Shown here in pieces: positions 2,077-39,181 of a DNA stretch of 64,000 bases. The stretch comes from Candidatus Woesearchaeota archaeon. Lineage in GTDB: Archaea; Nanobdellota; Nanobdellia; Pacearchaeales; GW2011-AR1. A program made the translations under genes and the position numbers. The DNA is taken from assembly GCA_964410025.1 (NCBI GenBank), contig CAYPFA010000001.1, positions 223,401 through 287,400 of the forward strand. Direction: 5' to 3'. How positions within the stretch are numbered: the stretch's first letter is position 1; the number at the start of each line of letters is the position of its first letter. Under the pieces are notes generated by a model. It saw only the letters and a list, made by a program, of their open reading frames with translations, was not told where the DNA came from and ran no database searches.

Positions 2077-2106
2077 AATATTTTTTAGCTAACTGAATTT
2101 AAATAG

Positions 2107-9173: not shown

Positions 9174-9273
9174 AGTTTAAAATATTTACACAAAAGACAT
9201 AATAAAAGAATCAGACAAAAATTTGTTTGGCTAAATTTTAGTATTTGTCAAAATTTGAAAGGAGGTTAAGAAT

Positions 9274-9828
9274 ATGAACAAAAAAGCAGTAAGTGAAATC
9301 GTTTCTACAGTTTTAATAATTGCTATTACAATTGCAGCAGTCGGTATTATTATGGCATGGATCGTTCCTATGATCAGAACTAGTATTGATAAAGGCTCAG
9401 CATGTTTTGATGCACAAAGTGATATCTCTCTCGTAACAGACGGAGGATATACTTGTATCTCTAATTCTGTTTCAATGTGTCCAGATGGAAATTATGTTCC
9501 ATTCAATAATACTCATTGTAACGGTACAGATAATACTGGATTTAAAACAAACGTAACGGGTGCAATAATATATTTTCAAGTTAAAAAAGGTGCAAACACC
9601 AAAATTAATTTGACAGGTATACAAGCAATTATTTCAATCGCTGGAAACACACAATCAATAGATATTACAACTGGCTTACCCACAACAAACAACGAAAAGA
9701 CATTAAGTCTTAGCGGTGTAAAATACCAAAATGCTACAAGTATAAAAGTGGCACCAATGGTGAAGGTAGGAAAAGTACAATCTCTTTGCGAAACAACACA
9801 AGAAATAGCTTTAGCAAATTGTGCCTAA
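9274..9828 (+). CDS. Archaeal type IV pilin-like protein
   Basis: MNKKAVSEIVSTVLIIAITIAAVGIIMAW. A strong SD (aggaggt) precedes the ATG. Confidence 0.7.
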   Translation: MNKKAVSEIVSTVLIIAITIAAVGIIMAWIVPMIRTSIDKGSACFDAQSDISLVTDGGYTCISNSVSMCPDGNYVPFNNTHCNGTDNTGFKTNVTGAIIYFQVKKGANTKINLTGIQAIISIAGNTQSIDITTGLPTTNNEKTLSLSGVKYQNATSIKVAPMVKVGKVQSLCETTQEIALANCA

Positions 9829-9896
9829 ATAAATTTTAATATTTTTATTTTTATTTTTATTTTTACTATATTCAACAAAAATAACTATTTAGAAAA

Positions 9897-10409
9897 ATGA
9901 AAAAAAGAGGACAAATCTGGGTTGAAACGGTCATATATACACTAATTGGCTTAGCAATAATTGGAATTGTTTTAGCCGCCTCAAAACCAAAAATAGAGGA
10001 AATGAAAGATAAATTAATTATAGAACAAACCATCTCCTCTCTAAATGATCTCTCTAGTCAAATATACGATGCTCAAATGGCTCCTGGCAACAAGAGAATT
10101 ATTGACATGCAAATTTCTAAAGGAACATTTTACATAGACTCAGAAAAAGATGAAATAGGATGGTCTATTGAATCAGGCTATAAATATAGCGAAATTGGGA
10201 AAGCCATCTCTTTAGGAAATCTCAACGTACTCACAACATCCTCAGGCCCTTATGAGATCAAAATCTACAGAAACTTCAGCTCAAACCTAAGCGTTGACGG
10301 AGCACAAAAAAAATTACAACTAGAAAGCGCTCCAAAACCATATAAAATTTCTGTAACAAACAAGGGTTTATCTGGAGGACTAGTTAATATTGATATATCT
10401 GCATTTTAA
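9897..10409 (+). CDS. Archaeal type IV pilin-like protein
   Basis: MKKRGQIWVETVIYTLIGLAIIGIVLA, a KRG-Q class III signal peptide. Confidence 0.7.
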   Translation: MKKRGQIWVETVIYTLIGLAIIGIVLAASKPKIEEMKDKLIIEQTISSLNDLSSQIYDAQMAPGNKRIIDMQISKGTFYIDSEKDEIGWSIESGYKYSEIGKAISLGNLNVLTTSSGPYEIKIYRNFSSNLSVDGAQKKLQLESAPKPYKISVTNKGLSGGLVNIDISAF

Positions 10410-17092: not shown

Positions 17093-17380
17093 TTATCCTT
17101 CAACAATTCTTTTTATAGAATCAATATGTTCTGCGATTTCAAGTCCTCTCTTTGTTAATTTGATGATTTTTATTCTTCCTTTCTTTTCAAAAACAACCAA
17201 TCCTAACTCTTCAAGTATCTGTAAAATCTTAACAGCATGAGAATATGTACAATCTACCTCTTTCGCAAGAACAGAACCATATTTTGCCTTATTAACTCTC
17301 TTTAAAGCAAGGAGCATCATTGCCGGTTTCCTTCTAAAAAACAAATCGAAGTTCGCGTGTATGTTTGGTATGTCTGCCAT
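17093..17380 (-). CDS. Small winged-helix DNA-binding protein (ArsR/MarR-like)
   Basis: 95 aa. YGSVLAKEVDCTYSHAVKILQILEELGLVVFEKKGRIKIIKLTKRG is a typical wHTH. Confidence 0.55.
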   Translation of the reverse strand: MADIPNIHANFDLFFRRKPAMMLLALKRVNKAKYGSVLAKEVDCTYSHAVKILQILEELGLVVFEKKGRIKIIKLTKRGLEIAEHIDSIKRIVEG

Positions 17381-20238: not shown

Positions 20239-20760
20239 TTATTTCGTAAAATCTTTCCATATCTGACTAGTTTCCGGACCGACAGAATTTTTATATTTCC
20301 CCTTATATAACGTGATTTTTCCCAGAGGCTTCCAAAATAACATTTGCCCAACCTTCATTCCGGGATAAACTTTTAATCTGTGTATGCTATGTAATTCCAA
20401 AGTCCACTGATTCTTAAAACCAATATCTCCGAGGCCAGAATTAAGATAAATATACAGTCCCAAACGACCAACCGAACTTCTTGCCTGCATAATCGGCGCA
20501 AAAAAATCCGAACCCATTTCCTCAATAGTATGTCCTAAATAAAGTTGATTTGGCTCCAAAACAAAACCATCCTCTGGAATAACAATCTCTTCAAATTCAT
20601 TTTCCTTAGCAGAATCTAAACAATTATTTTTATAAATTTTTAATTTATTTCCTAATCTAAAATTATAACTATTTGGATTAATATTTTCTTCCATAAACGG
20701 GAAAATATGTATTTTACCCAAACCAACCTGCCGCCTAATCTCATTTCCAGTAAGAATCAT
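20239..20760 (-). CDS. dcd: dCTP deaminase-fold protein (Dcd/dUTPase superfamily)
   Basis: MILTGNEIRR...NPNSYNFRLG, ARSSVGRLGLYI, GFKNQWTLELHS and VGQMLF match Dcd motifs. It is the last gene of the overlapping five-gene operon. Confidence 0.75.
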   Translation of the reverse strand: MILTGNEIRRQVGLGKIHIFPFMEENINPNSYNFRLGNKLKIYKNNCLDSAKENEFEEIVIPEDGFVLEPNQLYLGHTIEEMGSDFFAPIMQARSSVGRLGLYIYLNSGLGDIGFKNQWTLELHSIHRLKVYPGMKVGQMLFWKPLGKITLYKGKYKNSVGPETSQIWKDFTK

Positions 20761-21464
20761 ATTTCGTCCCTCCAGCCTCTTCTAACAACTCCGTCGGCAT
20801 GCAAAGTCATTTCCGGAAATTCAAACTCCACATCAAGATTTTTATTTTTATAACAAGGATTTCTGCCAAAAAAAACACAATCTTTAACGCCGAGATTTTT
20901 AAAAAAATCTACAATTGATACATATTGAGAATTTTGATTACCATAATCTAAATTAAACATTTCCCTAACCACAACTTTTTTTGCACCGATCAAATTAGCC
21001 CAGTCAATATATGACTCAAAATTATTGCAATGAAAAATGCCTTTTCCATACAACATTAAAGAAAGTTTTATCGGCACTCTTTTTACCAGCTCACCAATAT
21101 CATAAGAAATTCCCATTATTCTTTCATTTTCTGAATCAATATGATGGGCACGTGAGACAGATAAAGTATTTAGCAACTCCAAATTTTTTACAGAAGAAGC
21201 CAGCGCCCCATTCGTATACATTTGAGTCGGAGCTCTATCACAACAAATTTTTATTATACTCTCAATCTGTGGATGCAAAGTTGGCTCTCCGCCACCGGTA
21301 ATTTCAATTCTACTAACATCATAACTCGCCAAAGATTTTTCCAAATTATCAACACTAAGAAAACCTTCTTTACAAAGAATTCCAGTCCTATCTCTAACTT
21401 TTGTTATACAAAAACCGCAATCAGCATTACAAAACTTTTCAACCGGAAGAACATACAATTTCAT
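20757..21464 (-). CDS. Small radical SAM enzyme (235 aa) with viperin/MoaA-like core
   Basis: CNADCGFC (CxxxCxxC) at residues 12-19, ITGGGEPTLHP, YTNG, LSVSRAHHIDSENERIMG. There is no SPASM or other C-terminal cluster domain. Confidence 0.8.
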   Translation of the reverse strand: MKLYVLPVEKFCNADCGFCITKVRDRTGILCKEGFLSVDNLEKSLASYDVSRIEITGGGEPTLHPQIESIIKICCDRAPTQMYTNGALASSVKNLELLNTLSVSRAHHIDSENERIMGISYDIGELVKRVPIKLSLMLYGKGIFHCNNFESYIDWANLIGAKKVVVREMFNLDYGNQNSQYVSIVDFFKNLGVKDCVFFGRNPCYKNKNLDVEFEFPEMTLHADGVVRRGWRDEI

Positions 21465-21945
21465 TTCTCACCTCCATTATTATTTTATCCAACTCTTCAT
21501 AGTCCTTAGATTGATAATGAATATTACAAATTCCACCCAATTCAGCCAAAAATAATTCACGTGAATATTCCAACTCTTCTAATTTTATTTGCTGAGGATA
21601 ATTCCTACCAAGATATCTTTGCTTAAGAACATCGGCTGATGGACAGACAAGAACAATAAGTGATTTTTGCGAAGAAAGTTTATCTAATATCTCTTTTTCA
21701 TCGAAACTAAAAGGACTACCCCCTCTCCACATTTTAGAATAAACCTCTTCTGAAAAATGACTTCTATCTATTACAGTATTTTCCAAAAACGCGTACTCCT
21801 TCAAGTATCTTTGAAATTGATTTCCAGGCCTATGATGAAGCGACTTAGCGTCCCACTTGAGAGTATTCTTAAGACGCTCCACTAAAGTTGATTTTCCAGA
21901 ACAATCAGGACCATCAACGATTATAGTGCTTATTCTTTTTTCCAT
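21439..21945 (-). CDS. P-loop nucleoside/nucleotide kinase-like protein (Tmk/dNK-like)
   Basis: Walker A VDGPDCSGKST at residues 10-20. Small size (168 aa), with DRS and LVCP segments arranged as in (d)NMP kinases. Confidence 0.55.
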   Translation of the reverse strand: MEKRISTIIVDGPDCSGKSTLVERLKNTLKWDAKSLHHRPGNQFQRYLKEYAFLENTVIDRSHFSEEVYSKMWRGGSPFSFDEKEILDKLSSQKSLIVLVCPSADVLKQRYLGRNYPQQIKLEELEYSRELFLAELGGICNIHYQSKDYEELDKIIMEVRNEIVCSSG

Positions 21946-22636
21946 CTTTTACAATCTGAAGATAACTTCTTCTTTCTCTTGGGAATTTATTTAACTCCAA
22001 ATACTTCAAAACATTTGTAATAACTTCCGGCTTATCCTCTACCTCAATAAATCTTTTTCCGTCTTCCAATACATCTAAAGAAATAGTTGCATGGCCATCC
22101 CAACCATCACCAAAAAGATAATTTGCCCTTCTCTTTGTATACTCTATATCTCTTTTCATTCCCATTCGTGAAAATAACAACTGTAATTTTTCAAAATCGT
22201 CAATCCCATAATCAAATTCAATTTCTTCTCTTGAATTAAATTCTTCAGATTTCTCTCTCTTGCCCTTGTAAGTTACCTTCACGTCTTCTCCAAATTTTCT
22301 CAATCTCAAAAAACCACTAGGAACCTTGTAAAATATATTTTTTTCTTCACAAAATTCCGGCTCACTATTCTCCCAAAGTTTTTTTACAACTCCATCAAAA
22401 ACTTTCAAACTTACAGGAATTTTCACCTCAACTTCAAGATTCTTTTTTTGAACTACTTTTTCAAGAGTCCATATTCCTCTTTCTTCCAAGTCTCTTTTTT
22501 CCAATTTCTTTGCATGTTCTCCATAACAGTCTAAATCCAAACCAGATCTATCATAAACAGGGTTCTCTCCATATCTACCACACAAAGCCAAATACGATTC
22601 CATGTCGTCATGTATTGCTTTCAAGATGTCGCTCAT
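21914..22636 (-). CDS. CYTH-domain (triphosphate tunnel metalloenzyme) protein with ~65-aa N-terminal extension
   Basis: ExExK (LEVEVKIPV), FLRLRK, VTYKGKRE, REEIEFDY, YTKRRANYLF, ISLDVLEDGKRFIEVE, the canonical CYTH strand series. Confidence 0.65.
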   Translation of the reverse strand: MSDILKAIHDDMESYLALCGRYGENPVYDRSGLDLDCYGEHAKKLEKRDLEERGIWTLEKVVQKKNLEVEVKIPVSLKVFDGVVKKLWENSEPEFCEEKNIFYKVPSGFLRLRKFGEDVKVTYKGKREKSEEFNSREEIEFDYGIDDFEKLQLLFSRMGMKRDIEYTKRRANYLFGDGWDGHATISLDVLEDGKRFIEVEDKPEVITNVLKYLELNKFPRERRSYLQIVKDGKKNKHYNR

Positions 22637-23175
22637 TTTAACCTCTCCACAAGTTCAACTACATAATCAGCTCTTTGCTCAGGAGTACCGACTATGGGAA
22701 CTCTAATTGGAAAATACCCATAATCTACGTATGCCTTTTGGATATGATCATGTATCCTCTCTGCCTCAGCATCATTAGATTCTAGCCTAAGTCCATCTTG
22801 AACAAGCGGTAATCTATCTAGTAAAAGAATAACATTATATCGGCCTTTCATCTGATGACAATCAAACACTTTAGGAATTCGATTTAAAGCATGTCTGGAA
22901 TAAGCAATTCCATCCACAACACTCCGATCGAGATATGCCAACTTGTCGGATGAACCTTCAAGAACGTCATCAAGATCTGATTCATTTGCCGATTGCCTTT
23001 CCAAAACTCTTGTCTGAAAATTTTCATAATCAGTTGCAGCCGCAGGTTCTTTTTCAAGAATTTCCCTAGCTGCCTCCCCGCAAATATTATGACCCTTTTT
23101 TCTAAGCTCATTAAGTAAAGTTGTCTTCCCACAGCAAGGTCCTCCTGTTAAAACAATCTTGATTTTGTCTTTCAT
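22633..23175 (-). CDS. AAA_28/COG3911-like P-loop ATPase (NadR-kinase-like)
   Basis: KIVLTGGPCCGKTTLLNELRKKGHNICGEAAREIL. 180 aa. First gene of the operon. Confidence 0.55.
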   Translation of the reverse strand: MKDKIKIVLTGGPCCGKTTLLNELRKKGHNICGEAAREILEKEPAAATDYENFQTRVLERQSANESDLDDVLEGSSDKLAYLDRSVVDGIAYSRHALNRIPKVFDCHQMKGRYNVILLLDRLPLVQDGLRLESNDAEAERIHDHIQKAYVDYGYFPIRVPIVGTPEQRADYVVELVERLK

Positions 23176-23279
23176 ATCTATACATAGACTTGTATTGTTA
23201 TTACATTTTTCTGCTCATAAATTATACACAGTGTTGTATAAAAGAAAAAGCTTAAATATATGATAAAATAGGAAATAGC

Positions 23280-24116
23280 ATGTTAGACAAAGAAATCGTC
23301 ACAAAAATTGAATCGTTTGTATATTCAAAACCTCGTTCAGTTCAAGAAATAGCAGAGTATATTGGCAAAAACTGGAGAACGGCAGACAGGTATATAGACG
23401 AAATAGAAAAAAATTTTGGCACACTATCTACCAGAGTTTTTAGAGAAGGCACAAGAGGCGCCCTAAAAATTGTTTATTTTGCAAGCATAGAAAAAGCATC
23501 AGGAACAATATTCCAAGAAAACCTAGAAAAAGAAATTCTCACACTAAAAAGAAAAGAAGACTTTTCCGCATTTGATATTTTTCAACTAGTTCCAGAAAAA
23601 AACAAAAAAGCAGAAAAAGAAAAAGCTATCGATGAAAATCACACTAATTTAAATAGTTTAAAAGAAATTCTAGAAAGCGCAGAAAAACAAGTATTGTTCT
23701 TTTCTGGAAATTTATCTTTCATCAATTTAAAAAATAAAAACTTCAGCATGCTAAACACAATTGAAAATTTAATCAAAGAAAAAATCCAAATAAAAATAAT
23801 TGCAAGAGTTGATTTTACAGCGAAAGAAAGTCTAGAAAAACTTTTAGCATTAAATTTTAAATACGGAAAAGAAGCAATTGAAATCCACCACAAAGATCAA
23901 CCAGTAAGAGCAATGATAATAGACAATAAAATAATACGACTCAAAGAACAGAAAGAACCAACCGGAAAAATAAACGAACTAGATGATAAAATGTACATCT
24001 TCTATACAATAAAAGACAAAGAATGGGCTGAATGGCTTTCTAAAATATTTTGGAAAATATTTTCTTTCTCAATAGATTCTAAAAAAAGACTAGAGGAATT
24101 AAACAAAATAAAATGA
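23280..24116 (+). CDS. wHTH transcriptional regulator, possibly TrmB-like
   Basis: N-terminal SKPRSVQEIAEYIGKNWRTADRYIDEIE is a wHTH. The C-terminal domain is of uncertain family. Divergent from the five-gene operon. Confidence 0.4.
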   Translation: MLDKEIVTKIESFVYSKPRSVQEIAEYIGKNWRTADRYIDEIEKNFGTLSTRVFREGTRGALKIVYFASIEKASGTIFQENLEKEILTLKRKEDFSAFDIFQLVPEKNKKAEKEKAIDENHTNLNSLKEILESAEKQVLFFSGNLSFINLKNKNFSMLNTIENLIKEKIQIKIIARVDFTAKESLEKLLALNFKYGKEAIEIHHKDQPVRAMIIDNKIIRLKEQKEPTGKINELDDKMYIFYTIKDKEWAEWLSKIFWKIFSFSIDSKKRLEELNKIK

Positions 24117-24739
24117 ATTCTCAACTAGCCATAAAACAACTCAACAACCTAAAGAAACTAGTCGAAAAACACTCTGAAAAACCAAGACTTGCAGCCGAAG
24201 ACTGGAGGGAAGATTGGCAAACTTTAATTGCAATAATTCTTTCGGCTCAAACACGAGACACAAAAACAATTGAAGTTTGCAAAAAACTATTTGCAAAATA
24301 TAATACTCCCAAAAAATTAGGAAATGCTTCTTTCGCAGAAATAAAAAATGCTATCCACGAAGTAAACTACCATAAAACAAAGGCAAAACACATTATAGAA
24401 ACAGCAAAGATAATTTCTAAGAAAGGAATTCCCATAACATTCGAAGGTTTACTAGAACTTCCAGGAGTCGGAAGAAAAACAGCAAACGTATTCTTAGTCG
24501 AAGCAAAAAACGCTCCGGCAATTGGAGTAGATACACATGTAGCTCGTTTATCTATTAAAATGAGCTGGACAACTAAGAAATTCGAGGACAAATTGGGAAT
24601 TGAAAAAGATTTAGAAAAATTATTCCCAAAAAAATATTGGAATTCAATAAATTATATTTTAGTTTCATTCGGACAAATATTCGGAAGAAGTCGAACGCAA
24701 GAAGATAAACTTTTAAAGCAAGTTAGAACTATTAAATAA
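24113..24739 (+). CDS. nth: Endonuclease III-like HhH-GPD DNA glycosylase
   Basis: ILSAQTRD, LPGVGRKTANVFL and GVDTHV motifs. The C-terminal four-Cys FeS loop is not evident. Confidence 0.75.
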   Translation: MNSQLAIKQLNNLKKLVEKHSEKPRLAAEDWREDWQTLIAIILSAQTRDTKTIEVCKKLFAKYNTPKKLGNASFAEIKNAIHEVNYHKTKAKHIIETAKIISKKGIPITFEGLLELPGVGRKTANVFLVEAKNAPAIGVDTHVARLSIKMSWTTKKFEDKLGIEKDLEKLFPKKYWNSINYILVSFGQIFGRSRTQEDKLLKQVRTIK

Positions 24740-24950: not shown

Positions 24951-25042
24951 TTCGAATCTGAGCAATTCGCTTTTGCATAAAAATTGCATCAGCACAAAAA
25001 TAAAAAATCGCAAATGCAAATTGCGAATATGGAGGGGCTATT
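24951..25042 (+). pseudogene. Second, interrupted copy of the tRNA-Gln 3' portion
   Basis: ttcgaatc (24951-24958) and tggaggggctatt (25030-25042) match tRNA positions 24854-24861 and 24863-24875. They are separated by the 71-nt insert. Confidence 0.7.
24959..25029. mobile_element. Small hairpin-forming insert, copy 2 of the family seen at 16015-16077
   Basis: Same 18-nt left end and 21-nt right end as copy 1, with a different AT-rich centre. Confidence 0.5.
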
Positions 25043-26039
25043 AATATTCCATCTCAATTCTTAATTCCATCAAACAGAATACGAACTTGCTAATCTGCAT
25101 AAAATGTCTTGTAATACTTCTAGCATCTTTATTTGGAGATTCCTTCCAATTAAAATGCTCATTATAAATCTTAAAATCATCTTCGCCAAAATCAATTACT
25201 CCCTTTCTATCAAACTTATAAAATAAATGATAATAATTATCAAAATGCTTTTTTACAGTTTCTGCAAACTCTAAAACATCATCCACCTTCTTCTTAGAAC
25301 GAGCTAAGTGATTTCCGATATATTTGAACTCATCTCCAAGTAATTCTAATAAAAACAAAGTTGAAAACATTACTGGCTTATTTTTATGAAAAGAAGAATC
25401 ATTTATTTTATTATTAATTCTACAACAATAATCAATAAATCTATCAACATTAATGTCCATCGTGTGTAAGTTTTTACACAAAGAAATATCTCCTACTTGA
25501 TTTGTTTTTATAGCATCAATAACCTTATCAAATAATTCCTGAATCAAAAGAAAAATTCTTCTAAGGGAGTTATCAAATTCCTTCGCGCTCGGCTCGCCCA
25601 TTTCTCTAATAATACAACCATCTTTAGAATTATCAATAACTTCTACGCCCACAAATCTATCCACCAGCTCCTGAATTGTCTCTAGGGGCGTTTTCTTAGC
25701 CGGTTTCTCTCCTAGTCTTCTATATTCAAACTGCGAAGAATAATAATTATAGGCTCCCTCGAAATCTTTCTTAGAAGAATCATAAACAATTTTTATCTCA
25801 TCATAACCTTCCCTATATGCTGACTGAAAAAATCTCCAAAGCATAGGAATTCTCAAACCTGTAATATCAATTGTAGTACTTTTAAAACCCGTATGCTGCT
25901 TTCCATTTACCACCAAACTGCCATCACTTTCTACAACATCTACTTCGTCCCCGGCTTGAAGATTAAGTTTCTTAGTCCACTCACTAGGCAAAGTTAAAGT
26001 CATTGTATTATGGCCCTGTTTAATGATTCGCCTTTTCAT
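25041..26039 (-). CDS. AbrB/SpoVT-domain + PhoU-like regulator
   Basis: N-terminal RRIIKQGHNTMTLTLPSEWTKKLNLQAGDEVDV is a swapped-hairpin AbrB fold. The helical C-terminal two thirds resemble archaeal PhoU-domain proteins. Confidence 0.6.
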   Translation of the reverse strand: MKRRIIKQGHNTMTLTLPSEWTKKLNLQAGDEVDVVESDGSLVVNGKQHTGFKSTTIDITGLRIPMLWRFFQSAYREGYDEIKIVYDSSKKDFEGAYNYYSSQFEYRRLGEKPAKKTPLETIQELVDRFVGVEVIDNSKDGCIIREMGEPSAKEFDNSLRRIFLLIQELFDKVIDAIKTNQVGDISLCKNLHTMDINVDRFIDYCCRINNKINDSSFHKNKPVMFSTLFLLELLGDEFKYIGNHLARSKKKVDDVLEFAETVKKHFDNYYHLFYKFDRKGVIDFGEDDFKIYNEHFNWKESPNKDARSITRHFMQISKFVFCLMELRIEMEY

Positions 26040-26227: not shown

Positions 26228-27448
26228 ATGGACACGCAAAACGAGCAAGCTCCCATAAGAACAGAAACACCCAATGAATCAGAACAAAGATTTCTGAAAC
26301 TCCTAAGAAGAAACGGCGCTCCTTTTGATTATGAAAGACAACTTTTTAATGATCATTATCAAAATGTATTAGGCGTTAGAAAAGGAGATCGTCCCATACC
26401 CTATGAATTAGAAATACAACCCACTTCTATTTGCAATTTAAAATGCGAACATTGCTTTGGCAAGGCACTTACATGCTCAAGATTAGAGGATAAGATGGAT
26501 ATGCCAGAACTAGAAAAAATTGCTCAAAGAATTTCAGAATTTCATGAAGGAGCATACACTGTTGAAACCGTTAAATTCTGCGGAACAACGGGTGAACCGC
26601 TAGTTAATCCCATAACAATTCCTGGAATAAATTTATTTAAAAAAATCGATAAAAAAGTAATATTATATACAAACGGACTTTGGCTAGACAAAAAAACCAA
26701 CCAAGGAATAACTTATGCAGAGGCAATAACCCAAGCAGATAAAGTAAATATAAGTCTAGATGCTGGAACTCCTCAAACATTTTTTGAAATAAAAAAAGTT
26801 GATGGATTTAATAGAACAATAAAAAATATTGAAAATCTCGTAGCCAGCAGAAATACACATCACTCGCCACTAAGAATAGATGTAAGTTATGTAATTGGAC
26901 CAAAAAATTATTTAGAAGTTGAAACAACTGTAAATCTTATCAGACAATTGGGAGCAGATCATTTAATTTTTAGAGTAGACTTCGCACATCCAAATTTAAT
27001 CAAATCTCTAGCTCCCATTATACTCGCTGAAAAAGCAAGAGCTATCAAATCGCTTTCTCCAGATTTTAAAATTTCTTTTGCCTATTCGGACAGCGAAATT
27101 TTGGACACAGATAAAGATCAAGAAGCGCATGCTCTAACTGCCCAAGGAAAAAAATGCTATAATCACAACTTTTGGGCTTGCATTGGTCCAGATTGCAACC
27201 TATATGTTTGCGGACATAGAACCTATGAAGGAGTCGAACATTTCGGTAACGTCCTAGACACCCCCTTAAACGAACTTTGGAATTCTAAAAAAAGAACAAA
27301 TATCGTAGACAACCTTCCAGACGACAAATGCAAATTTTGCTCTCCTTCGTGCCACAGAAGAGACTGCCTAATGAAAGATTTATCAGAACGTTCGATCGAG
27401 GAGATAGAACAACTACACGAAAAGTATGTTGTAAAAAAAACAAAATAG
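26228..27448 (+). CDS. Radical SAM enzyme with C-terminal Cys-rich (SPASM/twitch-like) domain
   Basis: CNLKCEHC, GTTGEPLVNP. C-terminal cysteines: KKCYNHNFWACIGPDCNLYVCGHR...DKCKFCSPSCHRRDC. Confidence 0.8.
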   Translation: MDTQNEQAPIRTETPNESEQRFLKLLRRNGAPFDYERQLFNDHYQNVLGVRKGDRPIPYELEIQPTSICNLKCEHCFGKALTCSRLEDKMDMPELEKIAQRISEFHEGAYTVETVKFCGTTGEPLVNPITIPGINLFKKIDKKVILYTNGLWLDKKTNQGITYAEAITQADKVNISLDAGTPQTFFEIKKVDGFNRTIKNIENLVASRNTHHSPLRIDVSYVIGPKNYLEVETTVNLIRQLGADHLIFRVDFAHPNLIKSLAPIILAEKARAIKSLSPDFKISFAYSDSEILDTDKDQEAHALTAQGKKCYNHNFWACIGPDCNLYVCGHRTYEGVEHFGNVLDTPLNELWNSKKRTNIVDNLPDDKCKFCSPSCHRRDCLMKDLSERSIEEIEQLHEKYVVKKTK

Positions 27449-32838: not shown

Positions 32839-34005
32839 ATGGAAGTCGAATTAAAAGGCACAACTGAAAAAATTAAAGATCCTAGCGCAGCTAAGCGATG
32901 GGTTCAAAATCACGCTCGAATTTGTTATACTGAAAAAAGCTGGGACGAATTATTAGACGAGGGATTTAAAGAAGGATTAATCGGAAATTTAATTGGAAGA
33001 GGACACCATAGTCCATTTGATCATTTCTATTTAAATTTTTATTTTGAAGGTCCAGAAAAAGCACTCGCAATGGTTTTCAATAATCAAGGAATGTATACAA
33101 CATCTGAAAAATCCGCAAGATATACTATTATGGAAGGAATACCTGATCATCAAAAAAATCTTTATGACAAATGGGATAATTGGTTCTCCGAAGAAATTAC
33201 AAACCAATTTCCAACAAGCACCTTTCCTAAATTATATCAAAAAGGCGGAGATGGAAAAACGACTGCAGAAAAATTAGCACAAGAGAATGCAAGATATATG
33301 GCAAGTGTTTTCACGCCGACGAAAATGACACATTCTCTAACCTGGAGACAAACAAATATTATCTTTCATCAATTTGAAGATTATATATCAGAAAATAAAA
33401 ATAATCCAGACCACTTTAAGAAAAAATTAGCAGATTCCATGAAAAGTTTTGTCGAATCAAAGGAAATCAAAAACTGGATAATTGACGAAGCACAAGTAAG
33501 AATGAAGGGAAATATACCTCTTAAATTTTTTAGAAATGAACTTGAAGAACATTTTGGAAAAGATATTTATTCTACAAATTATACTGCCAGTTTTGCCTCA
33601 CTTGCTCAACTTCATAGGCACAGACTCGTGAATTATACCGTTTCAGATGGATTTCAATTAAGAGCACCGATGGGAGTTTATGTTCCTAGACTTGTTGAAT
33701 CTCGTGAAAAAACAGACGAATGGTTAAGCGATTTAAAAAGTATTTCTGAATATGATATTCCTCAAGCCCAACTATTAAGAGTGGGCGAAAGAGGATTTCC
33801 AGAAAATCTTCCAGCAAAAACTGAAGAAAGAGAATGTGGACTTGCGCAATTAGAAACTGCTAGAGTTATTGGTGAATTTTTAGATAATTATGGAAAAATT
33901 ATTCCAGAAATAGCAAACCTAAAACAACCAATATGTACTAAAAACGGATGCAAAAGAGGAGGATGCACTTTCGGGACAAAATTATGCCTTGATAGATTAA
34001 TATAA
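32839..34005 (+). CDS. ThyX-like flavin-dependent thymidylate synthase, long and divergent
   Basis: GRGHHSPFDH parallels ThyX GHETPFEH, and SEKSARY parallels ELSGRY. HRHR occurs only much later (LAQLHRHRLVNY). The stop overlaps the tmk start. Confidence 0.5.
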   Translation: MEVELKGTTEKIKDPSAAKRWVQNHARICYTEKSWDELLDEGFKEGLIGNLIGRGHHSPFDHFYLNFYFEGPEKALAMVFNNQGMYTTSEKSARYTIMEGIPDHQKNLYDKWDNWFSEEITNQFPTSTFPKLYQKGGDGKTTAEKLAQENARYMASVFTPTKMTHSLTWRQTNIIFHQFEDYISENKNNPDHFKKKLADSMKSFVESKEIKNWIIDEAQVRMKGNIPLKFFRNELEEHFGKDIYSTNYTASFASLAQLHRHRLVNYTVSDGFQLRAPMGVYVPRLVESREKTDEWLSDLKSISEYDIPQAQLLRVGERGFPENLPAKTEERECGLAQLETARVIGEFLDNYGKIIPEIANLKQPICTKNGCKRGGCTFGTKLCLDRLI

Positions 34006-34619
34006 TGCGTGGAAAATTTATTACATTTGAAGGACCAGAGGGCGGTGGAAAAACTACAATCTCAAAATTATTATATAAAGATTTCTTAGATGGGGGAATG
34101 CAAGCAGTTCTTACTCGAGAACCGGGCGGAGTTATAGAAGGTGAAGCAATAAGAACAATTTTGAAAAGTACAGATTACAAATTAACAAATCTTGCTCAGA
34201 TGTACTTATTTTCAGCAAGCCGAAATATGTTTGTAACGAGATTGGTAAAACCCAACTTAGAAAATGGTGTTCATGTTATTGCCGATAGATTTGCAGATTC
34301 TACACGAGCGTATCAAGGATATGCAGGTGGCGGAGATATGGAGAGAATAGAAAGATTGATTACAGAAAGTACTGAGGGAATTTCGCCAGATTTTACAGTG
34401 ATTATTGACATCGACCCGGAAATTGGCCTAAAGAAAGAAGTAGAGGACAGTAGCTTCTCGAAATTAGGACTTCCTTACCACCAAAGAGTCCGCGCAGGAT
34501 ATTTAGAAATTGCAAAACAAAATCCAGAAAGATGCTTTGTTCTTCCATACCAAAAGGATAAAGTTCTCGAGATGCACAATCAACTAAGAGAAGAAATTAA
34601 GAAAAGATTAATCATCTAA
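34005..34619 (+). CDS. tmk: Thymidylate kinase
   Basis: KFITFEGPEGGGKTT, LTREPGG, DRFADSTRAYQG. Confidence 0.9.
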   Translation: MRGKFITFEGPEGGGKTTISKLLYKDFLDGGMQAVLTREPGGVIEGEAIRTILKSTDYKLTNLAQMYLFSASRNMFVTRLVKPNLENGVHVIADRFADSTRAYQGYAGGGDMERIERLITESTEGISPDFTVIIDIDPEIGLKKEVEDSSFSKLGLPYHQRVRAGYLEIAKQNPERCFVLPYQKDKVLEMHNQLREEIKKRLII

Positions 34620-34788: not shown

Positions 34789-35241
34789 ATGCAATGCCCA
34801 TACTGTCAAAACGAAGAAACAAAAGTTACAGATAAAAGAGACGCAGAAGGCATGACAAAAAGAAGAAGGGAATGTTTGAAGTGTGAAAAAAGATTCACAA
34901 CATACGAACATGTTGAAATGAATTTAAACGTTATAAAAAAAGATGGCAAAAGAGAAAAATTCGACAGAGAAAAACTCAAAAGAGGAATATTTAGGTCCTT
35001 TGAAAAACGTTCACTAAAAACGGAAGAGATTGATGATGTGATAAGTGAAATAGAAGCAAAAATTTACAGAAATTCAAAAGATGAGGAAATTTCAACTTCA
35101 AAAATTGGCGAAATCGTCATGGACAAATTAAAAAAAGTCGACAAGGTTGCATACATTCGATTTGCCTCGGTATATAGAGAATTTGCAGATATTGAAGACT
35201 TTAAACAAGAACTAAAAGATTTAACAACAAATGGTAAATAA
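34789..35241 (+). CDS. nrdR: Transcriptional repressor NrdR (Zn ribbon + ATP-cone)
   Basis: MQCPYCQNEETKVTDKR...CLKCEKRFTTYE, followed by an ATP-cone. Confidence 0.9.
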   Translation: MQCPYCQNEETKVTDKRDAEGMTKRRRECLKCEKRFTTYEHVEMNLNVIKKDGKREKFDREKLKRGIFRSFEKRSLKTEEIDDVISEIEAKIYRNSKDEEISTSKIGEIVMDKLKKVDKVAYIRFASVYREFADIEDFKQELKDLTTNGK

Positions 35242-37267
35242 AGTAAGAAAAAGAGATGGAACGGTGGTTTTATTTGATAAAGAAAAAATTACTGATGCAA
35301 TTTGGAAAGCAGCGAAGGCAGTCGGTGGTCACGACAGAGAAAGAGCAGCAAGAGCAACAGAAATTGTTTGTCAAAAACTAAAAGATAAATATGGAGAAAA
35401 CGGCATACCAGAAGTTGAAGAAGTTCAAAACCTAGTAGAATCTGTTTTAATAAAAGAAGGACACGATCAAACTGCAAAAGCTTATATCTTATACCGAAAA
35501 TCCCACGAAGAACTAAGAAATGTAAAAGGACTTTTTGATACAATTGAAGCAGTTGAAGATTATATTGGCCTGAACGATTGGATGGTTAAAGAAAATTCTA
35601 ACATGGGTTTCTCACTACAAGGATTAAATAATTATATTGCAACAAAAATTATTACAAACTATTGGATGAGAAGAGTTTATCCAGAGTCAATGAGAAACGC
35701 ACATGAGAATGGCGAAATTCATATCCATGACCTGGGAACCCTTGGGGCCTATTGCGTCGGATGGGACCTTAAAGATATACTTACCGTTGGATTTACTGGA
35801 GTAAAGGGAAAAGTTCAATCCAAACCAGCAAAACATTTGAGAACCGCATTGGGACAAATGGTAAATTTCTTCTATACTCTTCAAGGAGAGACGGCAGGCG
35901 CCCAGGCTTTTTCTAACTTTGACACACTACTTGCTCCTTTTGTAAAATATGATAATCTGGACTATAACAGTGTAAAACAGGCTATGCAGGAATTCGTTTT
36001 TAATTTAGCAGTTCCAACTAGGGTAGGTTTCCAAACACCATTTACAAATATTACATTAGATTTGAAAGTTCCAAGCTATATGGCAAACGAACCAGTAATT
36101 ATTGGCGGCTTGCCTCAAAAAGAAACCTACAAAGAATTCCAAACCGAAATGGATATGATAAACAAAGCATTCGCAGAAGTAATGGTTGAAGGCGACGCAT
36201 CTGGAAGAGTTTTTACATTCCCAATTCCAACCTACAACATCACAAAAGATTTTGATTGGAGCAACCCAAACTACGACGCTATTTGGGAAATGACTGCAAA
36301 ATACGGAATACCTTATTTTTCTAATTTTATAAATTCAGATATGAAACCAGAAGATGCAAGAAGTATGTGTTGCCGTCTAAGACTTGATCAAACCGAATTA
36401 AGAAAAAGAGGCGGCGGATTATTCGGGGCAAATCCTCAAACAGGCTCAATCGGCGTAGTAACATTAAATATGCCAAGAATAGGTTTCACGGCACAATCGA
36501 AAGAAGACTATTTTAAAAAAGTTGGTGAACTAATGGAACTATCCAAAGAAAGTTTGGAAATCAAAAGAAGAACAATTGAAAGATTTACCGAAGTTGGCTT
36601 ATATCCCTATTCAAAATTTTATCTAAGACAAGTAAAACAAAGATATGGCCAATATTGGAAAAACCATTTTGCAACAATCGGACTTTTGGGAATGAATGAA
36701 AGCATAATGAATTTTATGCCAGGAGAAAACATAGCAACGGAAAAAGGCAAAGCATTCGCTATTGAGGTTTTAGATTTCATGAGAAAAAAACTTGAAGAAT
36801 ATCAAGCGGAAACAGGTAATATCTATAATCTTGAAGCAACTCCAGGAGAAGGAACAACCTACAGATTTGCGAGAATGGACAAAAAAAGATTTGGAAGAAT
36901 CCTTGTGGCTAATGATGAAGCGGTAAAAAAAGGAGCAAACCCTTATTACACAAACTCAACTCAACTTCCAGTAAACCATACGGATGATTTATTTTTAGCA
37001 ATGGAACTGCAAGATGAACTACAAACAAAATACACAGGAGGAACTGTTTTCCACGCATTCATCGGAGAAAGACTTCAAAAAGAAGGAGTAAAAAAACTTA
37101 TAAAATCCATGGCAGAAAATTTCAAAATGCCCTATTTTACATTAACTCCAACATTTTCCATCTGTCCAGTCCACGGATATATACAAGGGGAGCATGAGTT
37201 TTGTCCTAAATGCGATGATGAATCCAGCTACCAAGAAGGAGAAGAATTCAATCTCAGAACAGTCTAA
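35231..37267 (+). CDS. nrdD: Anaerobic (class III) ribonucleoside-triphosphate reductase, large part lacking the glycyl-radical C-terminus
   Basis: N-terminal ATP-cone (VRKRDGTVVLFDKEKI), central NrdD barrel with catalytic-loop MCCRLRLD. It ends CPKCDDESSYQEGEEFNLRTV without the RxxGY motif. Confidence 0.9.
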   Translation: MVNKVRKRDGTVVLFDKEKITDAIWKAAKAVGGHDRERAARATEIVCQKLKDKYGENGIPEVEEVQNLVESVLIKEGHDQTAKAYILYRKSHEELRNVKGLFDTIEAVEDYIGLNDWMVKENSNMGFSLQGLNNYIATKIITNYWMRRVYPESMRNAHENGEIHIHDLGTLGAYCVGWDLKDILTVGFTGVKGKVQSKPAKHLRTALGQMVNFFYTLQGETAGAQAFSNFDTLLAPFVKYDNLDYNSVKQAMQEFVFNLAVPTRVGFQTPFTNITLDLKVPSYMANEPVIIGGLPQKETYKEFQTEMDMINKAFAEVMVEGDASGRVFTFPIPTYNITKDFDWSNPNYDAIWEMTAKYGIPYFSNFINSDMKPEDARSMCCRLRLDQTELRKRGGGLFGANPQTGSIGVVTLNMPRIGFTAQSKEDYFKKVGELMELSKESLEIKRRTIERFTEVGLYPYSKFYLRQVKQRYGQYWKNHFATIGLLGMNESIMNFMPGENIATEKGKAFAIEVLDFMRKKLEEYQAETGNIYNLEATPGEGTTYRFARMDKKRFGRILVANDEAVKKGANPYYTNSTQLPVNHTDDLFLAMELQDELQTKYTGGTVFHAFIGERLQKEGVKKLIKSMAENFKMPYFTLTPTFSICPVHGYIQGEHEFCPKCDDESSYQEGEEFNLRTV

Positions 37268-37287: not shown

Positions 37288-37410
37288 ATGAAACAAAGAA
37301 CTAAATGCGAAGTATACAGTAGAATTTGCGGCTACATTCGTCCAGTAGAGCAATGGAATGAAGGCAAGCGTGCAGAATTTACTGATAGATCAAAATTCAG
37401 AGTTGAATGA
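37288..37410 (+). CDS. Stand-alone 40-aa NrdD glycyl-radical domain
   Basis: Not in ORF track because it is too short. MKQRTKCEVYSRICGYIRPVEQWNEGKRAEFTDRSKFRVE carries the NrdD C-terminal SRIxGY...RPV..WN.GK..EF..R signature. It has its own SD aaaggaggt 6 nt upstream, is in a different frame from nrdD, and its stop overlaps the nrdG ATG. Confidence 0.75.
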   Translation: MKQRTKCEVYSRICGYIRPVEQWNEGKRAEFTDRSKFRVE

Positions 37411-38114
37411 AAATAAAATATTTACAGAAGACAACTCTTGTTGATTACGCAGGCGAAATAGCCTGCACTCTTTTTACTTTTGGTTGTAATTTCCGTTGTG
37501 GTTTTTGCTACAACCCCGAACTAGTGCTCGAAGAAAAAACACCCGATCTTTCTCAAGATGAAATATTAAAATTTCTCGAACAAAGAAAAAAATATCTTTC
37601 CGCTATTTGTATAACTGGCGGAGAACCCCTAATTAACATAGATACAGAATTCCTGCAAAAAATAAAAGATATAGGATACAAAATAAAAATAGACACTAAC
37701 GGAAGTTTTCCGGAAAAACTAAAAGAACTAATTGATAAAAAACTTATTGACTTTGTCTCCATGGACATTAAAACAAAAAAACAAAACTACATAACCCTAA
37801 CAAATTCCCTAATTGAAATTGAAAAAATAGAAGAAAGTATGAAAATTATTTCCAATTTAGAAAATTATGAATTTAGAACTACTATCGTTCCTCTTCTGCA
37901 CAAAAAAAATGACATTATAGAAATGCTTGTTTGGCTAAACGAAGTAATTGGTAAAAAGCCCAAAAAATTCTCACTTCAAGGATTCAAAAACAAAGGAAAG
38001 TTTATAGATGAAAATTTTAAGAAAGAAAAGAACGCAACCGAAGAATTTCTTCAAGAAATTAAAACAGAAATTTTAAATAGTGCACTTGCGGAAATTGTTG
38101 AGGTAAAAATATGA
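37407..38114 (+). CDS. nrdG: Anaerobic RNR activating radical SAM enzyme
   Basis: FGCNFRCGFCYNPE cluster motif, ITGGEPL. Sits directly after nrdD. Confidence 0.85.
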   Translation: MKIKYLQKTTLVDYAGEIACTLFTFGCNFRCGFCYNPELVLEEKTPDLSQDEILKFLEQRKKYLSAICITGGEPLINIDTEFLQKIKDIGYKIKIDTNGSFPEKLKELIDKKLIDFVSMDIKTKKQNYITLTNSLIEIEKIEESMKIISNLENYEFRTTIVPLLHKKNDIIEMLVWLNEVIGKKPKKFSLQGFKNKGKFIDENFKKEKNATEEFLQEIKTEILNSALAEIVEVKI

Positions 38115-39181
38115 TAATTGGACTAACGGGAACAAAGGCATCCGGCAAAGGAATTGTTGCAGAAATACTAAAAGAAAAAGGCTTCTTTTACTTATCAACT
38201 TCCGACCAAGTTAGAAAAGAAGCTCTCTCAAGAGGAATGATAAATTATACCATTTCTGATTTACAAAATATAGGAAATGAAATTAGAGAGAAATTTGGTT
38301 CTGAAGAATTAGTTATACGATGTATAAAGGAAGCAAACGAAAAAGAAAATTTAGTTATTGATGGAATTAGAAATCCTGGAGAGGTAAAAGAAATAAAAAA
38401 AGTTGGTGGAATAATGATTTCTATTGATGCTCCTGTTGCATTAAGATTTGAAAGATTACTTTCCCGAAAAAGAGATAGTGATCCAAAAACACTTGAAGGA
38501 TTTAAACAAATGGAAGCAAGAGACCGTGGAGATAAAGAATCGGACAAGGGTCAACAAGTAGACAAATGCATAGAGATGTCAGACCATTTAATATTAAACG
38601 ATAGTACACTTGAAACATTAAAAACAAAAATAGAATATATTTTACTAAAAGAAAAGTCAAAAGACAATTCATCAATAAATCAGGGAGACGGAATTAATGA
38701 TTATAAAAGACCATCCTGGGATGAATATTTTATGGAAGTTTGTAAAGCCATTGCAAAAAGAGCAACCTGCGACCGAGGAAGAAGCGGATGTGTAATCGCC
38801 AAAAATAAACAACTTTTAGTAACTGGCTACGTTGGTTCTCCCATAGGAATGCCACATTGTGATGAAGTTGGACATTTATTTAAAAAAACAATTCACGAAG
38901 ACGGAACAATTACAAATCATTGCGTCAGAACCGTTCATGCAGAACAAAATGCAATTTGCCAAGCAGCAAAATTAGGAGTTGCACTAGAAAATGCAACACT
39001 TTATTGTAAAATGACTCCATGTAGGGTTTGCGCCATGCTAATAATAAATTCTGGAATTAAAAGAGTTGTTTGTGAAAAAAAATATCAAACAGGAAAAGAA
39101 TCCGAAGAAATGTTCGAAAAAGCTGAAGTAGAATTAAAAATACTTAATCCTGAAATAGAAGATTATTCCAATCAAAAATGA
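38111..39181 (+). CDS. Fusion of a P-loop (nucleotide/dephospho-CoA-kinase-like) domain with dCMP deaminase
   Basis: N-terminal IIGLTGTKASGKG. C-terminal half has HAEQNAI and PCRVCA zinc motifs of ComEB/dCMP deaminase. Confidence 0.8.
   Translation: MIIGLTGTKASGKGIVAEILKEKGFFYLSTSDQVRKEALSRGMINYTISDLQNIGNEIREKFGSEELVIRCIKEANEKENLVIDGIRNPGEVKEIKKVGGIMISIDAPVALRFERLLSRKRDSDPKTLEGFKQMEARDRGDKESDKGQQVDKCIEMSDHLILNDSTLETLKTKIEYILLKEKSKDNSSINQGDGINDYKRPSWDEYFMEVCKAIAKRATCDRGRSGCVIAKNKQLLVTGYVGSPIGMPHCDEVGHLFKKTIHEDGTITNHCVRTVHAEQNAICQAAKLGVALENATLYCKMTPCRVCAMLIINSGIKRVVCEKKYQTGKESEEMFEKAEVELKILNPEIEDYSNQK

Follow-up and report, generated by a model that had tools for sequence, protein, structure and literature searches.

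A recurrent kinase-radical SAM-Dcd gene triad in DPANN archaea and CPR bacteria, a candidate for processing of a deoxycytidine-type nucleotide

The operon described here lies in a stretch of 64,000 nucleotides (hereafter the window) of contig CAYPFA010000001.1 from a Candidatus Woesearchaeota archaeon (GenBank assembly GCA_964410025.1). Five minus-strand open reading frames (ORFs) fill positions 20239-23175 and overlap, in order of transcription, by 4, 32, 26 and 4 nt. They encode a AAA_28 P-loop protein, a CYTH triphosphate-tunnel enzyme, a small P-loop nucleotide kinase, a radical S-adenosylmethionine (SAM) enzyme and an enzyme of the Dcd family, which has the dCTP deaminase/dUTPase fold (Table 1). 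A preliminary description of this DNA had reported the five ORFs with their overlaps and characteristic motifs, and also a divergently transcribed winged helix-turn-helix (wHTH) gene beyond a shared 104-bp intergenic region. All of these are present in the sequence and the translations, the motifs being GGPCCGKTT for the AAA_28 protein, EVEVK, RLRK, EIEF and IEVE for the CYTH enzyme, GPDCSGKST for the kinase, and CNADCGFC, GGGEP, YTNG and LSVSRAHHIDSENERIMG for the radical SAM enzyme. Hidden Markov models (HMMs) confirmed the family assignments of four of the five proteins (AAA_28, CYTH, Radical_SAM and Dcd); the assignment of the P-loop kinase, which is below threshold in Pfam, holds by a profile match to YorR. 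We concluded that the finding is real, that the operon is not a housekeeping one, and that the unit consists of a three-gene core and an optional two-gene pair under a putative shared TrmB-type promoter.

Table 1. Features of the operon, its control region and other genes of the window
Feature	Position	Strand	Remarks
Dcd-family (dCTP deaminase/dUTPase fold) enzyme, 173 aa	20239-20760	-	Last operon gene; core; specialised subfamily
Radical SAM enzyme, 235 aa	20757-21464	-	Gene 4; core; uncharacterised family; MoaA/viperin/twitch structural neighbourhood; lost in one clade
Small deoxynucleoside kinase/thymidylate kinase (dNK/TMPK)-like P-loop nucleotide kinase, 168 aa	21439-21945	-	Gene 3; core; most like YorR
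CYTH triphosphate-tunnel enzyme, 240 aa	21914-22636	-	Gene 2; optional; always accompanies AAA_28
AAA_28 P-loop protein, 180 aa	22633-23175	-	Gene 1; optional across loci; relative of the ribosylnicotinamide-kinase domain of NadR
Divergent control region, 104 bp	23176-23279	.	TATA-like element and boxes 1 and 2
Box 2, TACAAGTCTAT	23184-23194		Just upstream of the operon
Box 1, TACAACACT	23230-23238		Invariant CAACAC; the region also holds a second A/T-rich element
TATA-like element	23252-23261		TrmB-like gene begins about 20 nt away
TrmB-family-like protein (predicted wHTH and phospholipase D (PLD)-like C-terminal domain), 278 aa	23280-24116	+	Divergent; probable but non-specific regulator
Endonuclease III-like HhH-GPD glycosylase	24113-24739	+	Overlaps the TrmB-like gene by 4 nt
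ThyX	32839-34005		dUMP/dTMP route
Tmk	34005-34619		dUMP/dTMP route
NrdR	34789-35241		dNTP operon
NrdD, class III ribonucleotide reductase, 678-aa ORF	35231-37267
NrdG activase	37407-38114
P-loop kinase-dCMP/cytidine deaminase fusion	38111-39181
dUTPase	39178-39603

Loci for comparison were fetched in three ways, namely with the radical SAM enzyme (one genome per species), with the Dcd enzyme (metagenome contigs) and by look-ups of exact proteins, and were annotated with phmmer; their handles are given in brackets where needed. The results showed that the genes for the kinase, the radical SAM enzyme and the Dcd enzyme lie directly next to one another in more than 20 distinct loci. The stop codon of one gene usually overlaps the start codon of the next, which together with the overlaps in the window bears out the translational coupling that had been suggested. 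The hosts of this triad are Nanoarchaeota and Woesearchaeota (DPANN archaea) as well as Patescibacteria and Saccharibacteria (bacteria of the candidate phyla radiation, CPR), the closest related loci being from metagenome-assembled genomes (MAGs) of Woesearchaeota and Nanoarchaeota, which places the source organism among the DPANN archaea. A chance arrangement is excluded, because many independent loci, in both domains, share this gene order. The full order AAA_28-CYTH-kinase-radical SAM-Dcd was found in seven loci (L010, L016, L019, L021, L022, L025 and L047). Recurrence in other genomes, on which the preliminary description had made its proposal depend, was therefore found both for the triad and for all five genes; what had been regarded as a five-gene unit does recur in its full order, but the conserved unit is the three genes for kinase, radical SAM enzyme and Dcd. 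The combination had also been called an unfamiliar one, and no description of the operon was found in the searchable literature on the themes of radical SAM, viperin, dCTP deaminase, CYTH, NadR, DPANN and CPR.

The AAA_28 and CYTH genes are the variable part of the operon. They occur together in about 10 of the approximately 24 distinct loci, are placed as a pair after Dcd in two (L043 and L054) and are both missing from the CPR loci; two loci (L007 and L009) carry AAA_28 without CYTH. In L045 they form a single protein of 346 aa, and the two genes are therefore functionally tied. Three loci (L013, L018 and L027) hold a triad rebuilt in another order, with a kinase like the phage deoxynucleoside monophosphate kinase DNMK and a more distant Dcd, and in one locus, which was fetched twice (L004 and L009), a nucleoside 2-deoxyribosyltransferase-like gene is inserted. 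The flanks vary from locus to locus and contain ordinary genes such as SecDF, tRNA-maturation genes, RtcB, peptidases and transporters. L043 alone lies beside an integrase gene, a LAGLIDADG gene and Hjc.

By Pfam, the protein encoded at the end of the operon is a member of the Dcd family (DCD, PF22769, E=8.4e-38, 130 bits versus a threshold of 27), and it passes the dCTP deaminase model TIGR02274 marginally, with 93.3 bits versus a cut-off of 92.8; its best match in the PDB is the bifunctional Dcd of M. tuberculosis (2e-19). At the sequence level the score and the catalytic Ser, Arg and Glu assign it to the dCTP deaminases: no variation was seen at S95, S96 and R99 and almost none at D112, and the subfamily retains E122. 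The aromatic F115 is also retained, at a position that in the dUTPase/Dcd superfamily presumably packs against the deoxyribose and gates against a 2'-OH. Since both the catalytic residues and this aromatic are kept, the substrate is probably a 2'-deoxynucleotide. The Dcd copies are 75-83% identical to that of the window, those of Patescibacteria included, and this identity across the divide between archaea and bacteria indicates that the module was recently transferred horizontally. The subfamily comprises more than 120 clusters at at least 73% identity, and its members adjoin the kinase gene in every locus with sufficient flank. The next tier, at 44-56% identity, consists of tandem Dcd pairs, and ordinary Dcd proteins are about 33% identical.

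These tandem paralogue pairs are common in metagenomes (L056-L093, L027 at 9185-10229, and L029). Two of them (L069, 4855-8130, and L073, 4902-8071) are flanked by a T4 gp1-like deoxynucleoside monophosphate (dNMP) kinase of the DNMK type and a TLC nucleotide transporter, and other pairs adjoin ATP-grasp/PPDK_N, TIR or conflict-type glycosyltransferase genes. In L027 and L029 one Dcd copy has its catalytic Glu replaced by Gln, and in the second copy of L027 Asp is replaced by His.

The Dcd-fold protein had initially been linked with nucleotide-depletion defence. This link was not upheld: the operon Dcd gave no match in PADLOC at E<=0.1, its dCTPase model included, and the protein of the window that this model does match (131.7 bits) is the kinase-cytidine deaminase fusion at 38111-39181. 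Nor is the operon the housekeeping dUMP route, because NrdD and NrdG, a dCMP deaminase, dUTPase, ThyX and Tmk are encoded separately in the window. The opinion that the operon is something other than housekeeping is thus borne out as far as dUMP/dTMP supply is concerned, with Dcd lying outside a core-genome context. The separate route is real and larger than was first listed, as it also includes NrdR, NrdD and NrdG, and its dCMP deaminase is fused to a kinase.

The 168-aa kinase lies immediately upstream of the radical SAM or the Dcd gene in all loci, its copies being 50-64% identical to that of the window. In Pfam it scored 15-17 bits versus 27 with PF02223 and PF01712, by the P-loop only, which leaves it outside the thymidylate and deoxynucleoside kinase families as defined there. 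When a profile of 16 homologues was compared with PDB sequences, the match was YorR (2axp/3kb2; E=3.9e-11), an uncharacterised protein of the B. subtilis prophage SPbeta. The kinase also matches the PHROG family 'thymidylate kinase' (E=1.8e-13) and, weakly and over its whole length, the PADLOC viperin-associated kinase VakA (E=9e-4).

For the AAA_28 protein the Pfam match is strong (E=3.5e-29), and a NadR-like PHROG family was matched at E=3e-11; TIGR01526 matches it by the ribosylnicotinamide-kinase domain of NadR only (E=2.2e-5). The second protein belongs to the CYTH family (PF01928, E=3.8e-14, 53.3 bits versus 23.2), with EVEVK at residues 68-72, and falls under the class IV adenylate cyclase cut-off (35.5 versus 57.95). 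Because the CYTH match spans residues 66-214, the protein has an N-terminal extension of about 65 aa, just as had been described; its homologues in L010 and L022, of 154-157 aa, are without it. Across loci the AAA_28 and CYTH proteins are each 28-38% identical to the window copies.

The radical SAM enzyme is a member of its superfamily by Pfam (PF04055, E=6e-9, 36.7 bits versus a gathering threshold of 29.5), and the motifs CxxxCxxC (C12/C16/C19) and GGGEP (G57-E60) are invariant in an alignment of 27 homologues. Across the loci it is 34-47% identical to the window copy. The 83 full-length homologues, of 235-260 aa, all come from metagenomes or MAGs and belong to Nanoarchaeota, Woesearchaeota and Patescibacteria. 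A profile search of 1.84 billion representative proteins delimited the family at 43 clusters (E<=1e-30), below which the scores drop to unrelated, heterogeneous radical SAM proteins; a near-full-length match was found in about 22 loci among 185,579 species representatives. The next-nearest relatives are fused to aminotransferase, PHP, B12 or SPASM domains and are too heterogeneous to be informative.

This enzyme is under every curated family cut-off for viperin, MoaA, QueE and the activases, with 29-37 bits versus 180-380, and so stands outside these families, as the proposal had required for housekeeping families such as QueE and the activases. The MoaA models TIGR02666 and TIGR02668 gave 29.9-31.3 bits versus cut-offs of 284-325 and the QueE model 29.4 bits versus 260; the identity with the window's own NrdG is 26% over 88 residues. 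When the family profile was searched against PDB sequences, viperin-like enzymes came first (4e-9, 39.5 bits, residues 10-152) and MoaA second (4e-6, 29.5 bits), and QueE and the activases gave no match at E<=1. Of our comparisons of the radical SAM enzyme, this is the only one that places viperins first. An AlphaFold model built with the 27 homologues had a predicted local distance difference test score (pLDDT) of 89.7, and a Foldseek search with it returned SuiB, MoaA (query TM-score, TMq, 0.71), viperins (TMq 0.64-0.68), BlsE, DesII and NifB. SuiB and MoaA rank at least level with viperin, and the glycyl-radical activases rank far lower, with PflA-AE at rank 37. The C-terminal 40 residues are predicted as short beta strands; this beta-rich subdomain stands in place of the viperin extension and in the majority of the family bears a CxC motif. 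Most members share four extra cysteines (C74, LCIS and SCxCE), which could bind an auxiliary cluster. The designation 'viperin-like' should be softened: viperins lead the profile search of the PDB, but the similarity is distant, and the matches to the pVip and viperin HMMs cover the generic core only. Judged from its sequence, the enzyme is a small family of its own on the MoaA/viperin branch, with viperins and MoaA as its nearest, though distant, solved relatives.

In two cases (L026 and P0334) a single protein combines the radical SAM enzyme with a dCMP/cytidine-deaminase domain, whose HAE and CxxC motifs are intact. The fusion is the most direct evidence for a cytosine nucleotide as its substrate or product.

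Three other ideas about this enzyme were rejected or set aside. An apparent kinase-radical SAM fusion in L011 is an ORF that crosses a scaffold gap, a run of N being translated as X. A viral origin is not supported by the IMG/VR contigs, in which no close homologue was found (identities did not exceed 34%, over the N-terminal core) and in which the relatives of the kinase are all distant. The third idea, that of a replacement ribonucleotide reductase (RNR) or a folate-independent thymidylate synthase, was given low priority, since NrdD/NrdG and ThyX/Tmk are encoded in the window and the sequence lends it no support; this applies to the present genome, not to other carriers.

Upstream of the operon, a Foldseek search with the 278-aa divergent protein returned TrmBL2 (5bpi) first (5.6e-9), followed by PLD-fold proteins such as NucT, Zucchini and PLD3, at TM-scores of only about 0.4 and with a model pLDDT of 72; the protein has no match in Pfam and no sequence-level match in the PDB. 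Its 1598 homologues make the family about 20 times as large as that of the radical SAM enzyme, and the best 120 of the 1598 are all 61-71% identical. A gene for a predicted wHTH protein is present where it had been described and probably encodes a regulator, but with so common a family it is not dedicated to the operon; we rejected a dedicated role, as the gene also sits beside other cargo (L127 and L128). A defence regulator of the WYL/BrxR type, which might be considered because one source names a homologue YafY, was rejected as well, the fold search giving TrmBL2 and the PLD fold.

When 10 intergenic regions were aligned, a CAACAC box and a TACAA box (TACAAGTCT) proved to be invariant and about 37 nt apart, whatever the cargo, and in several loci a palindrome, TTGACAA-N-TTGTCA, lies between the two. 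Neither box occurs a second time in the window, and no wider regulon was seen there. These regularities suggest that the TrmB-like gene and its putative promoter/operator form a conserved regulatory unit with exchangeable cargo. In two CPR loci the gene upstream is instead that of an NrtR-type Nudix-wHTH regulator.

Several further observations concern the surroundings of these genes. The cargo of L128 (2412-4800), an unrelated cassette divergent to the TrmB-like gene, encodes unassigned proteins of 168, 266 and 188 aa and a AAA_28 protein 40% identical to that of the window; its 168-aa protein is homologous to a 177-aa protein encoded between CYTH and kinase in L021 (2050-2583). A very conserved pair of paralogous radical SAM proteins of 288 and about 265 aa, with the motifs CNANCSFC and CNANCSHC, is encoded divergently to the TrmB-like gene in L127 (3213-4881) and straight after Dcd in L017 (9407-11068), and the gene for the 288-aa protein alone was seen after Dcd in L015 (9248-10114) and L051 (3469-4335). 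Copies of the 288-aa protein from different loci match one another at about 530-560 bits. The pair has no match to any curated family and may share a regulon or pathway with the operon. About 3 kb from the operon the window encodes a 95-aa protein (17093-17380), by eye a small wHTH protein, of which a 65%-identical homologue lies directly downstream of Dcd in L007 (9254-9607). This shared gene hints at residual synteny or a second regulator. In L046 the gene after Dcd encodes a putative Fe-S/zinc protein of the CxxCxxCC family (PF03692; 6554-7042), and the neighbourhood at 1039-3793 holds genes for Maf, an HD-domain protein and a AAA_28 protein, of which Maf at least suggests nucleotide house-cleaning.

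On this basis we tentatively propose, with somewhat less than even confidence, that the operon is an accessory, horizontally mobile one, which turns a deoxycytidine-type nucleotide into a non-canonical pyrimidine deoxynucleotide by phosphorylation, a radical reaction and deamination. Expression would start from the conserved promoter shared with the TrmB-like DNA-binding protein. The NadR-type AAA_28 kinase, where present, and the YorR/TMPK-like kinase would act on a (deoxy)cytidine nucleoside or monophosphate and bring it, by phosphorylation, towards the triphosphate. The radical SAM enzyme would alter that nucleotide by means of a 5'-deoxyadenosyl radical, the closest precedent being hydrogen abstraction from the sugar and dehydration of the viperin type. 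The Dcd-family enzyme would then deaminate the cytosine of the 2'-deoxy triphosphate to uracil, and CYTH, where present, would act on the triphosphate. The expected product would be a non-canonical pyrimidine deoxynucleotide and not ordinary dUMP, and its purpose could be antiviral or antagonistic, or else the clean-up or conversion of scavenged nucleotides. The proposal is favoured by the linkage of the triad, by the connection with cytosine (the radical SAM-deaminase fusions), by that with deoxynucleotides (the Dcd residues and the likeness of the kinase to phage dNMP and thymidylate kinases), and by the separate dNTP genes of the window, the rarity of the radical SAM family, the identity of Dcd across domains and the exchangeable cargo at the TrmB-like site. 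In addition, the nearest solved relatives of the radical SAM enzyme, the viperins, act on nucleoside triphosphates, and this is taken as a precedent for a nucleotide substrate. A bolder form of the proposal, which we regard as possible but doubtful, is that the triad represents a new radical SAM route to such a deoxynucleotide, either a 3'-blocked DNA terminator of the 3'-deoxy-3',4'-didehydro (ddh) type or a base-modified dC/dU triphosphate, used by DPANN and CPR organisms against viruses or competitors or to reshape nucleotide pools.

Several results weigh against this proposal. It is built on gene content, linkage and conserved residues, with every chemical step of the pathway inferred. On the viperin model NF038283 (viperin_w_prok) the radical SAM enzyme scores 31.3 bits versus a cut-off of 180, over residues 10-104 only, and its 31 bits on PADLOC pVip fall on the same stretch of generic N-terminal core. 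As a control, an unrelated SPASM radical SAM protein of the window scores 53 bits on pVip, so the 'viperin' signal at the HMM level is generic. The viperin C-terminal extension is missing, as had been noticed at the outset and as protein length, alignment and model all indicate: the protein ends at residue 235 and its alignment to viperin structures at 152. The clade of the window keeps only C74 of the four extra cysteines, the other three being lost. Neither Dcd nor CYTH has a match in PADLOC, no known defence genes were found in the flanks of the loci looked at, and the regulators are of metabolic type, TrmB-type or, in two CPR loci, NrtR-type. Moreover, one clade (L045, L050, L052 and L053) has lost the radical SAM gene and kept kinase and Dcd. 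Because both are well conserved there, the kinase and Dcd must have a function without the radical SAM enzyme.

The last observation favours the main rival explanation, salvage or pool conversion of deoxypyrimidines in nucleotide-scavenging symbionts. Here the kinase would act on dCMP and Dcd would convert dCTP to dUTP/dUMP for ThyX; AAA_28 and CYTH would handle nucleosides and triphosphates, and the radical SAM enzyme would be auxiliary, for example making a usable nucleotide from a modified or ribo-cytidine one. The Dcd and kinase of the loci without the radical SAM gene, which form one clade, differ from the rest by a few lineage-specific substitutions only; the kinase-Dcd pair has outlasted the loss. 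The next-closest Dcd pairs likewise adjoin DNMK-type dNMP kinases and, in L069 and L073, also TLC nucleotide transporters; one locus (L004, the same as L009) has the inserted nucleoside 2-deoxyribosyltransferase-like gene; the Dcd active site is intact with TIGR02274 at its threshold; and both the TrmB-like and the NrtR-like regulators are metabolic types. The hosts, too, are DPANN and CPR organisms, which typically lack de novo nucleotide synthesis. However, the window already holds a complete dUMP/dTMP route and a class III RNR, the module is rare and patchy and not lineage-wide, and the radical SAM gene is retained and translationally coupled in most loci; we know of no salvage step that needs a radical SAM enzyme. 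We consider this explanation tenable, though on balance rather unlikely.

A narrower version of our proposal, in which the operon is a strict viperin-type antiviral synthase of chain terminators, would have the radical SAM enzyme convert (d)CTP, which the kinases provide, to a ddh-type nucleotide, with Dcd turning that nucleotide into the uracil analogue or depleting the competing dCTP. The first rank of viperins in the profile search of PDB sequences, the weak whole-length match of the kinase to VakA (E=9e-4) and the parallel between the kinase and triphosphatase/cyclase partners of viperins and those found here all agree with it, as do the patchy, cross-domain distribution and the position of L043 beside integrase, LAGLIDADG and Hjc genes. 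Against these stand the missed viperin thresholds, the missing extension, the generic pVip match and flanks without defence-island context. The conserved kinase-Dcd operon remains after loss of the supposed effector, and from what is known of the family, Dcd-fold enzymes would be expected to reject nucleotides with a 2'-OH such as ddhCTP. This version therefore appears unlikely.

The glycosylase gene next to the TrmB-like gene raises the question of DNA modification. Its product matches Pfam HhH-GPD (E=2.9e-22) and scores 150.8 bits on TIGR01083 versus a cut-off of 211.7; it keeps the catalytic Lys and Asp of Endonuclease III (GVGRKTAN and VDTH) and is without the C-terminal Cys cluster for the usual [4Fe-4S]. 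The gene pair is also present in L019, L025 and L047, which are close relatives only, so the linkage may be incidental. If the glycosylase, co-transcribed with the TrmB-like gene in these four loci, is taken together with a dNMP kinase and a dCTP deaminase that resemble the nucleotide-modification sets of phages, the operon might supply a modified dCTP/dUTP precursor for DNA or RNA modification, in the manner of phage pyrimidine hypermodification. Radical SAM enzymes are reported to occur in thymidine hypermodification clusters (PMC5889632). We nevertheless consider this very improbable, as linked genes for a dedicated polymerase, transferase or restriction partner are lacking, the IMG/VR viral contigs have no close homologue of the radical SAM enzyme, and the linkage of the glycosylase is confined to close relatives.

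Returning to the proposed processing of a deoxycytidine-type nucleotide, few radical SAM enzymes act on free nucleotides (viperin, MoaA, QueE and a handful of enzymes of antibiotic pathways), and with every one of these a new field of chemistry or immunity began. The operon is a good candidate for new nucleotide chemistry: with a compact radical SAM family, a high-confidence model, fixed partners and an occasional deaminase fusion, the candidate substrates are few and directly testable. The module moves between DPANN archaea and CPR bacteria, ultra-small symbionts that live on scavenged nucleotides and whose accessory metabolism is largely uncharted. Should a chain-terminating or modified deoxynucleotide be the product, viperin-type biology would be extended from RNA to DNA precursors; if the operon performs a salvage step, it would hold the first radical SAM enzyme in deoxynucleotide salvage. 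Should the new route exist, it would be a deoxynucleotide counterpart of viperin-CMPK2 with an enzyme family of its own.

Elsewhere in the window, which has 33% G+C, the genes include those for PolB, RFC, SerRS and archaeal pilus proteins as well as tRNAs. The PADLOC match of the kinase-deaminase fusion (E=9.7e-39, residues 155-484 of the 630-residue dCTPase model) means that a defence-type architecture is found here in a housekeeping-looking NrdR-NrdD-NrdG-dUTPase operon. In the same operon NrdD is split: the 678-aa ORF ends within the C-terminal zinc-ribbon region, and a 40-aa ORF in another frame (37288-37410), with its own AAAGGAGG ribosome-binding site, bears the glycyl-radical motif RICGY. 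This could be a natural two-piece enzyme or a pseudogene. A SPASM radical SAM protein (406 aa, 26228-27448) has its best match in the tungsten-cofactor oxidoreductase maturase family, with 93.5 bits versus a cut-off of 380. It is divergent to a 332-aa protein (25041-26039) whose N-terminal domain is of the AbrB/MazE type, and a search of the surroundings by eye gave no obvious gene for its substrate.

The components can finally be compared with known systems. The predicted wHTH and PLD-like C-terminal domain of the divergent protein resemble TrmBL2 structures at TM-scores of only about 0.4, but there is no sequence-level match in Pfam or the PDB, and the gene is far commoner than the operon and borders other cargo too. 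The operon Dcd has the same fold and catalytic residues as known dCTP deaminases (E. coli Dcd, M. tuberculosis Rv0321 and M. jannaschii DCD-DUT), from which it differs by an identity of about 33% and by belonging to a tight subfamily that always adjoins the small kinase and usually the radical SAM gene. It shares with the anti-phage dCTP deaminase (PADLOC dCTPase) the predicted deamination of deoxycytidine nucleotides and the pairing with a P-loop kinase-like domain; the defence enzyme, however, has a zinc cytidine-deaminase fold fused to its kinase domain. The highest TM-score of the radical SAM model (0.71) was obtained with MoaA, the GTP 3',8-cyclase, an NTP-binding radical SAM enzyme. MoaA carries an auxiliary cluster, and the extra cysteines of most members of the operon family could hold one, whereas the radical SAM enzyme of the window is without the C-terminal CxC and the LCIS cysteine, and no MoaC or other molybdopterin genes are linked.

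Viperin, to which the best-scoring solved relatives of the family profile belong, is a small radical SAM enzyme of the same structural neighbourhood. Like the operon enzyme, it is encoded beside a nucleotide kinase in its known systems (RSAD2-CMPK2 and pVip-Vak). Among the categories relevant here, we take COG1437 to be the CYTH-type class IV cyclases. Viperins frequently adjoin nucleoside monophosphate (NMP) kinases, and four viperins, all eukaryotic, are joined in one protein with a triphosphatase/cyclase domain; this category takes in COG2114, PF00211 and COG1437, and the share of COG1437 among the four is not stated (doi 10.1101/2023.09.13.557418). Because viperins pair with NMP kinases and have such fusions, the combination of a kinase, a CYTH enzyme and a nucleotide-directed radical SAM enzyme plausibly follows, by analogy, a familiar logic. 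Viperin converts an NTP to a 3'-deoxy-3',4'-didehydro-NTP. Structurally it is defined by a partial (beta-alpha)6 barrel closed by a conserved NTP-binding C-terminal extension (doi 10.1101/2023.09.13.557418). The core barrel of the operon enzyme is alike (TMq 0.64-0.68), but it aligns over residues 10-152 only and the extension is missing. The partners differ as well: the kinase is YorR/TMPK-like and not demonstrably CMPK2-like, and a Dcd-fold deaminase, not reported for viperins, is here an obligate partner. Set beside the viperin systems, the operon enzyme is tied to cytosine nucleotides by its deaminase fusions (L026 and P0334), and its partners point to deoxy- and not ribonucleotides as substrates.

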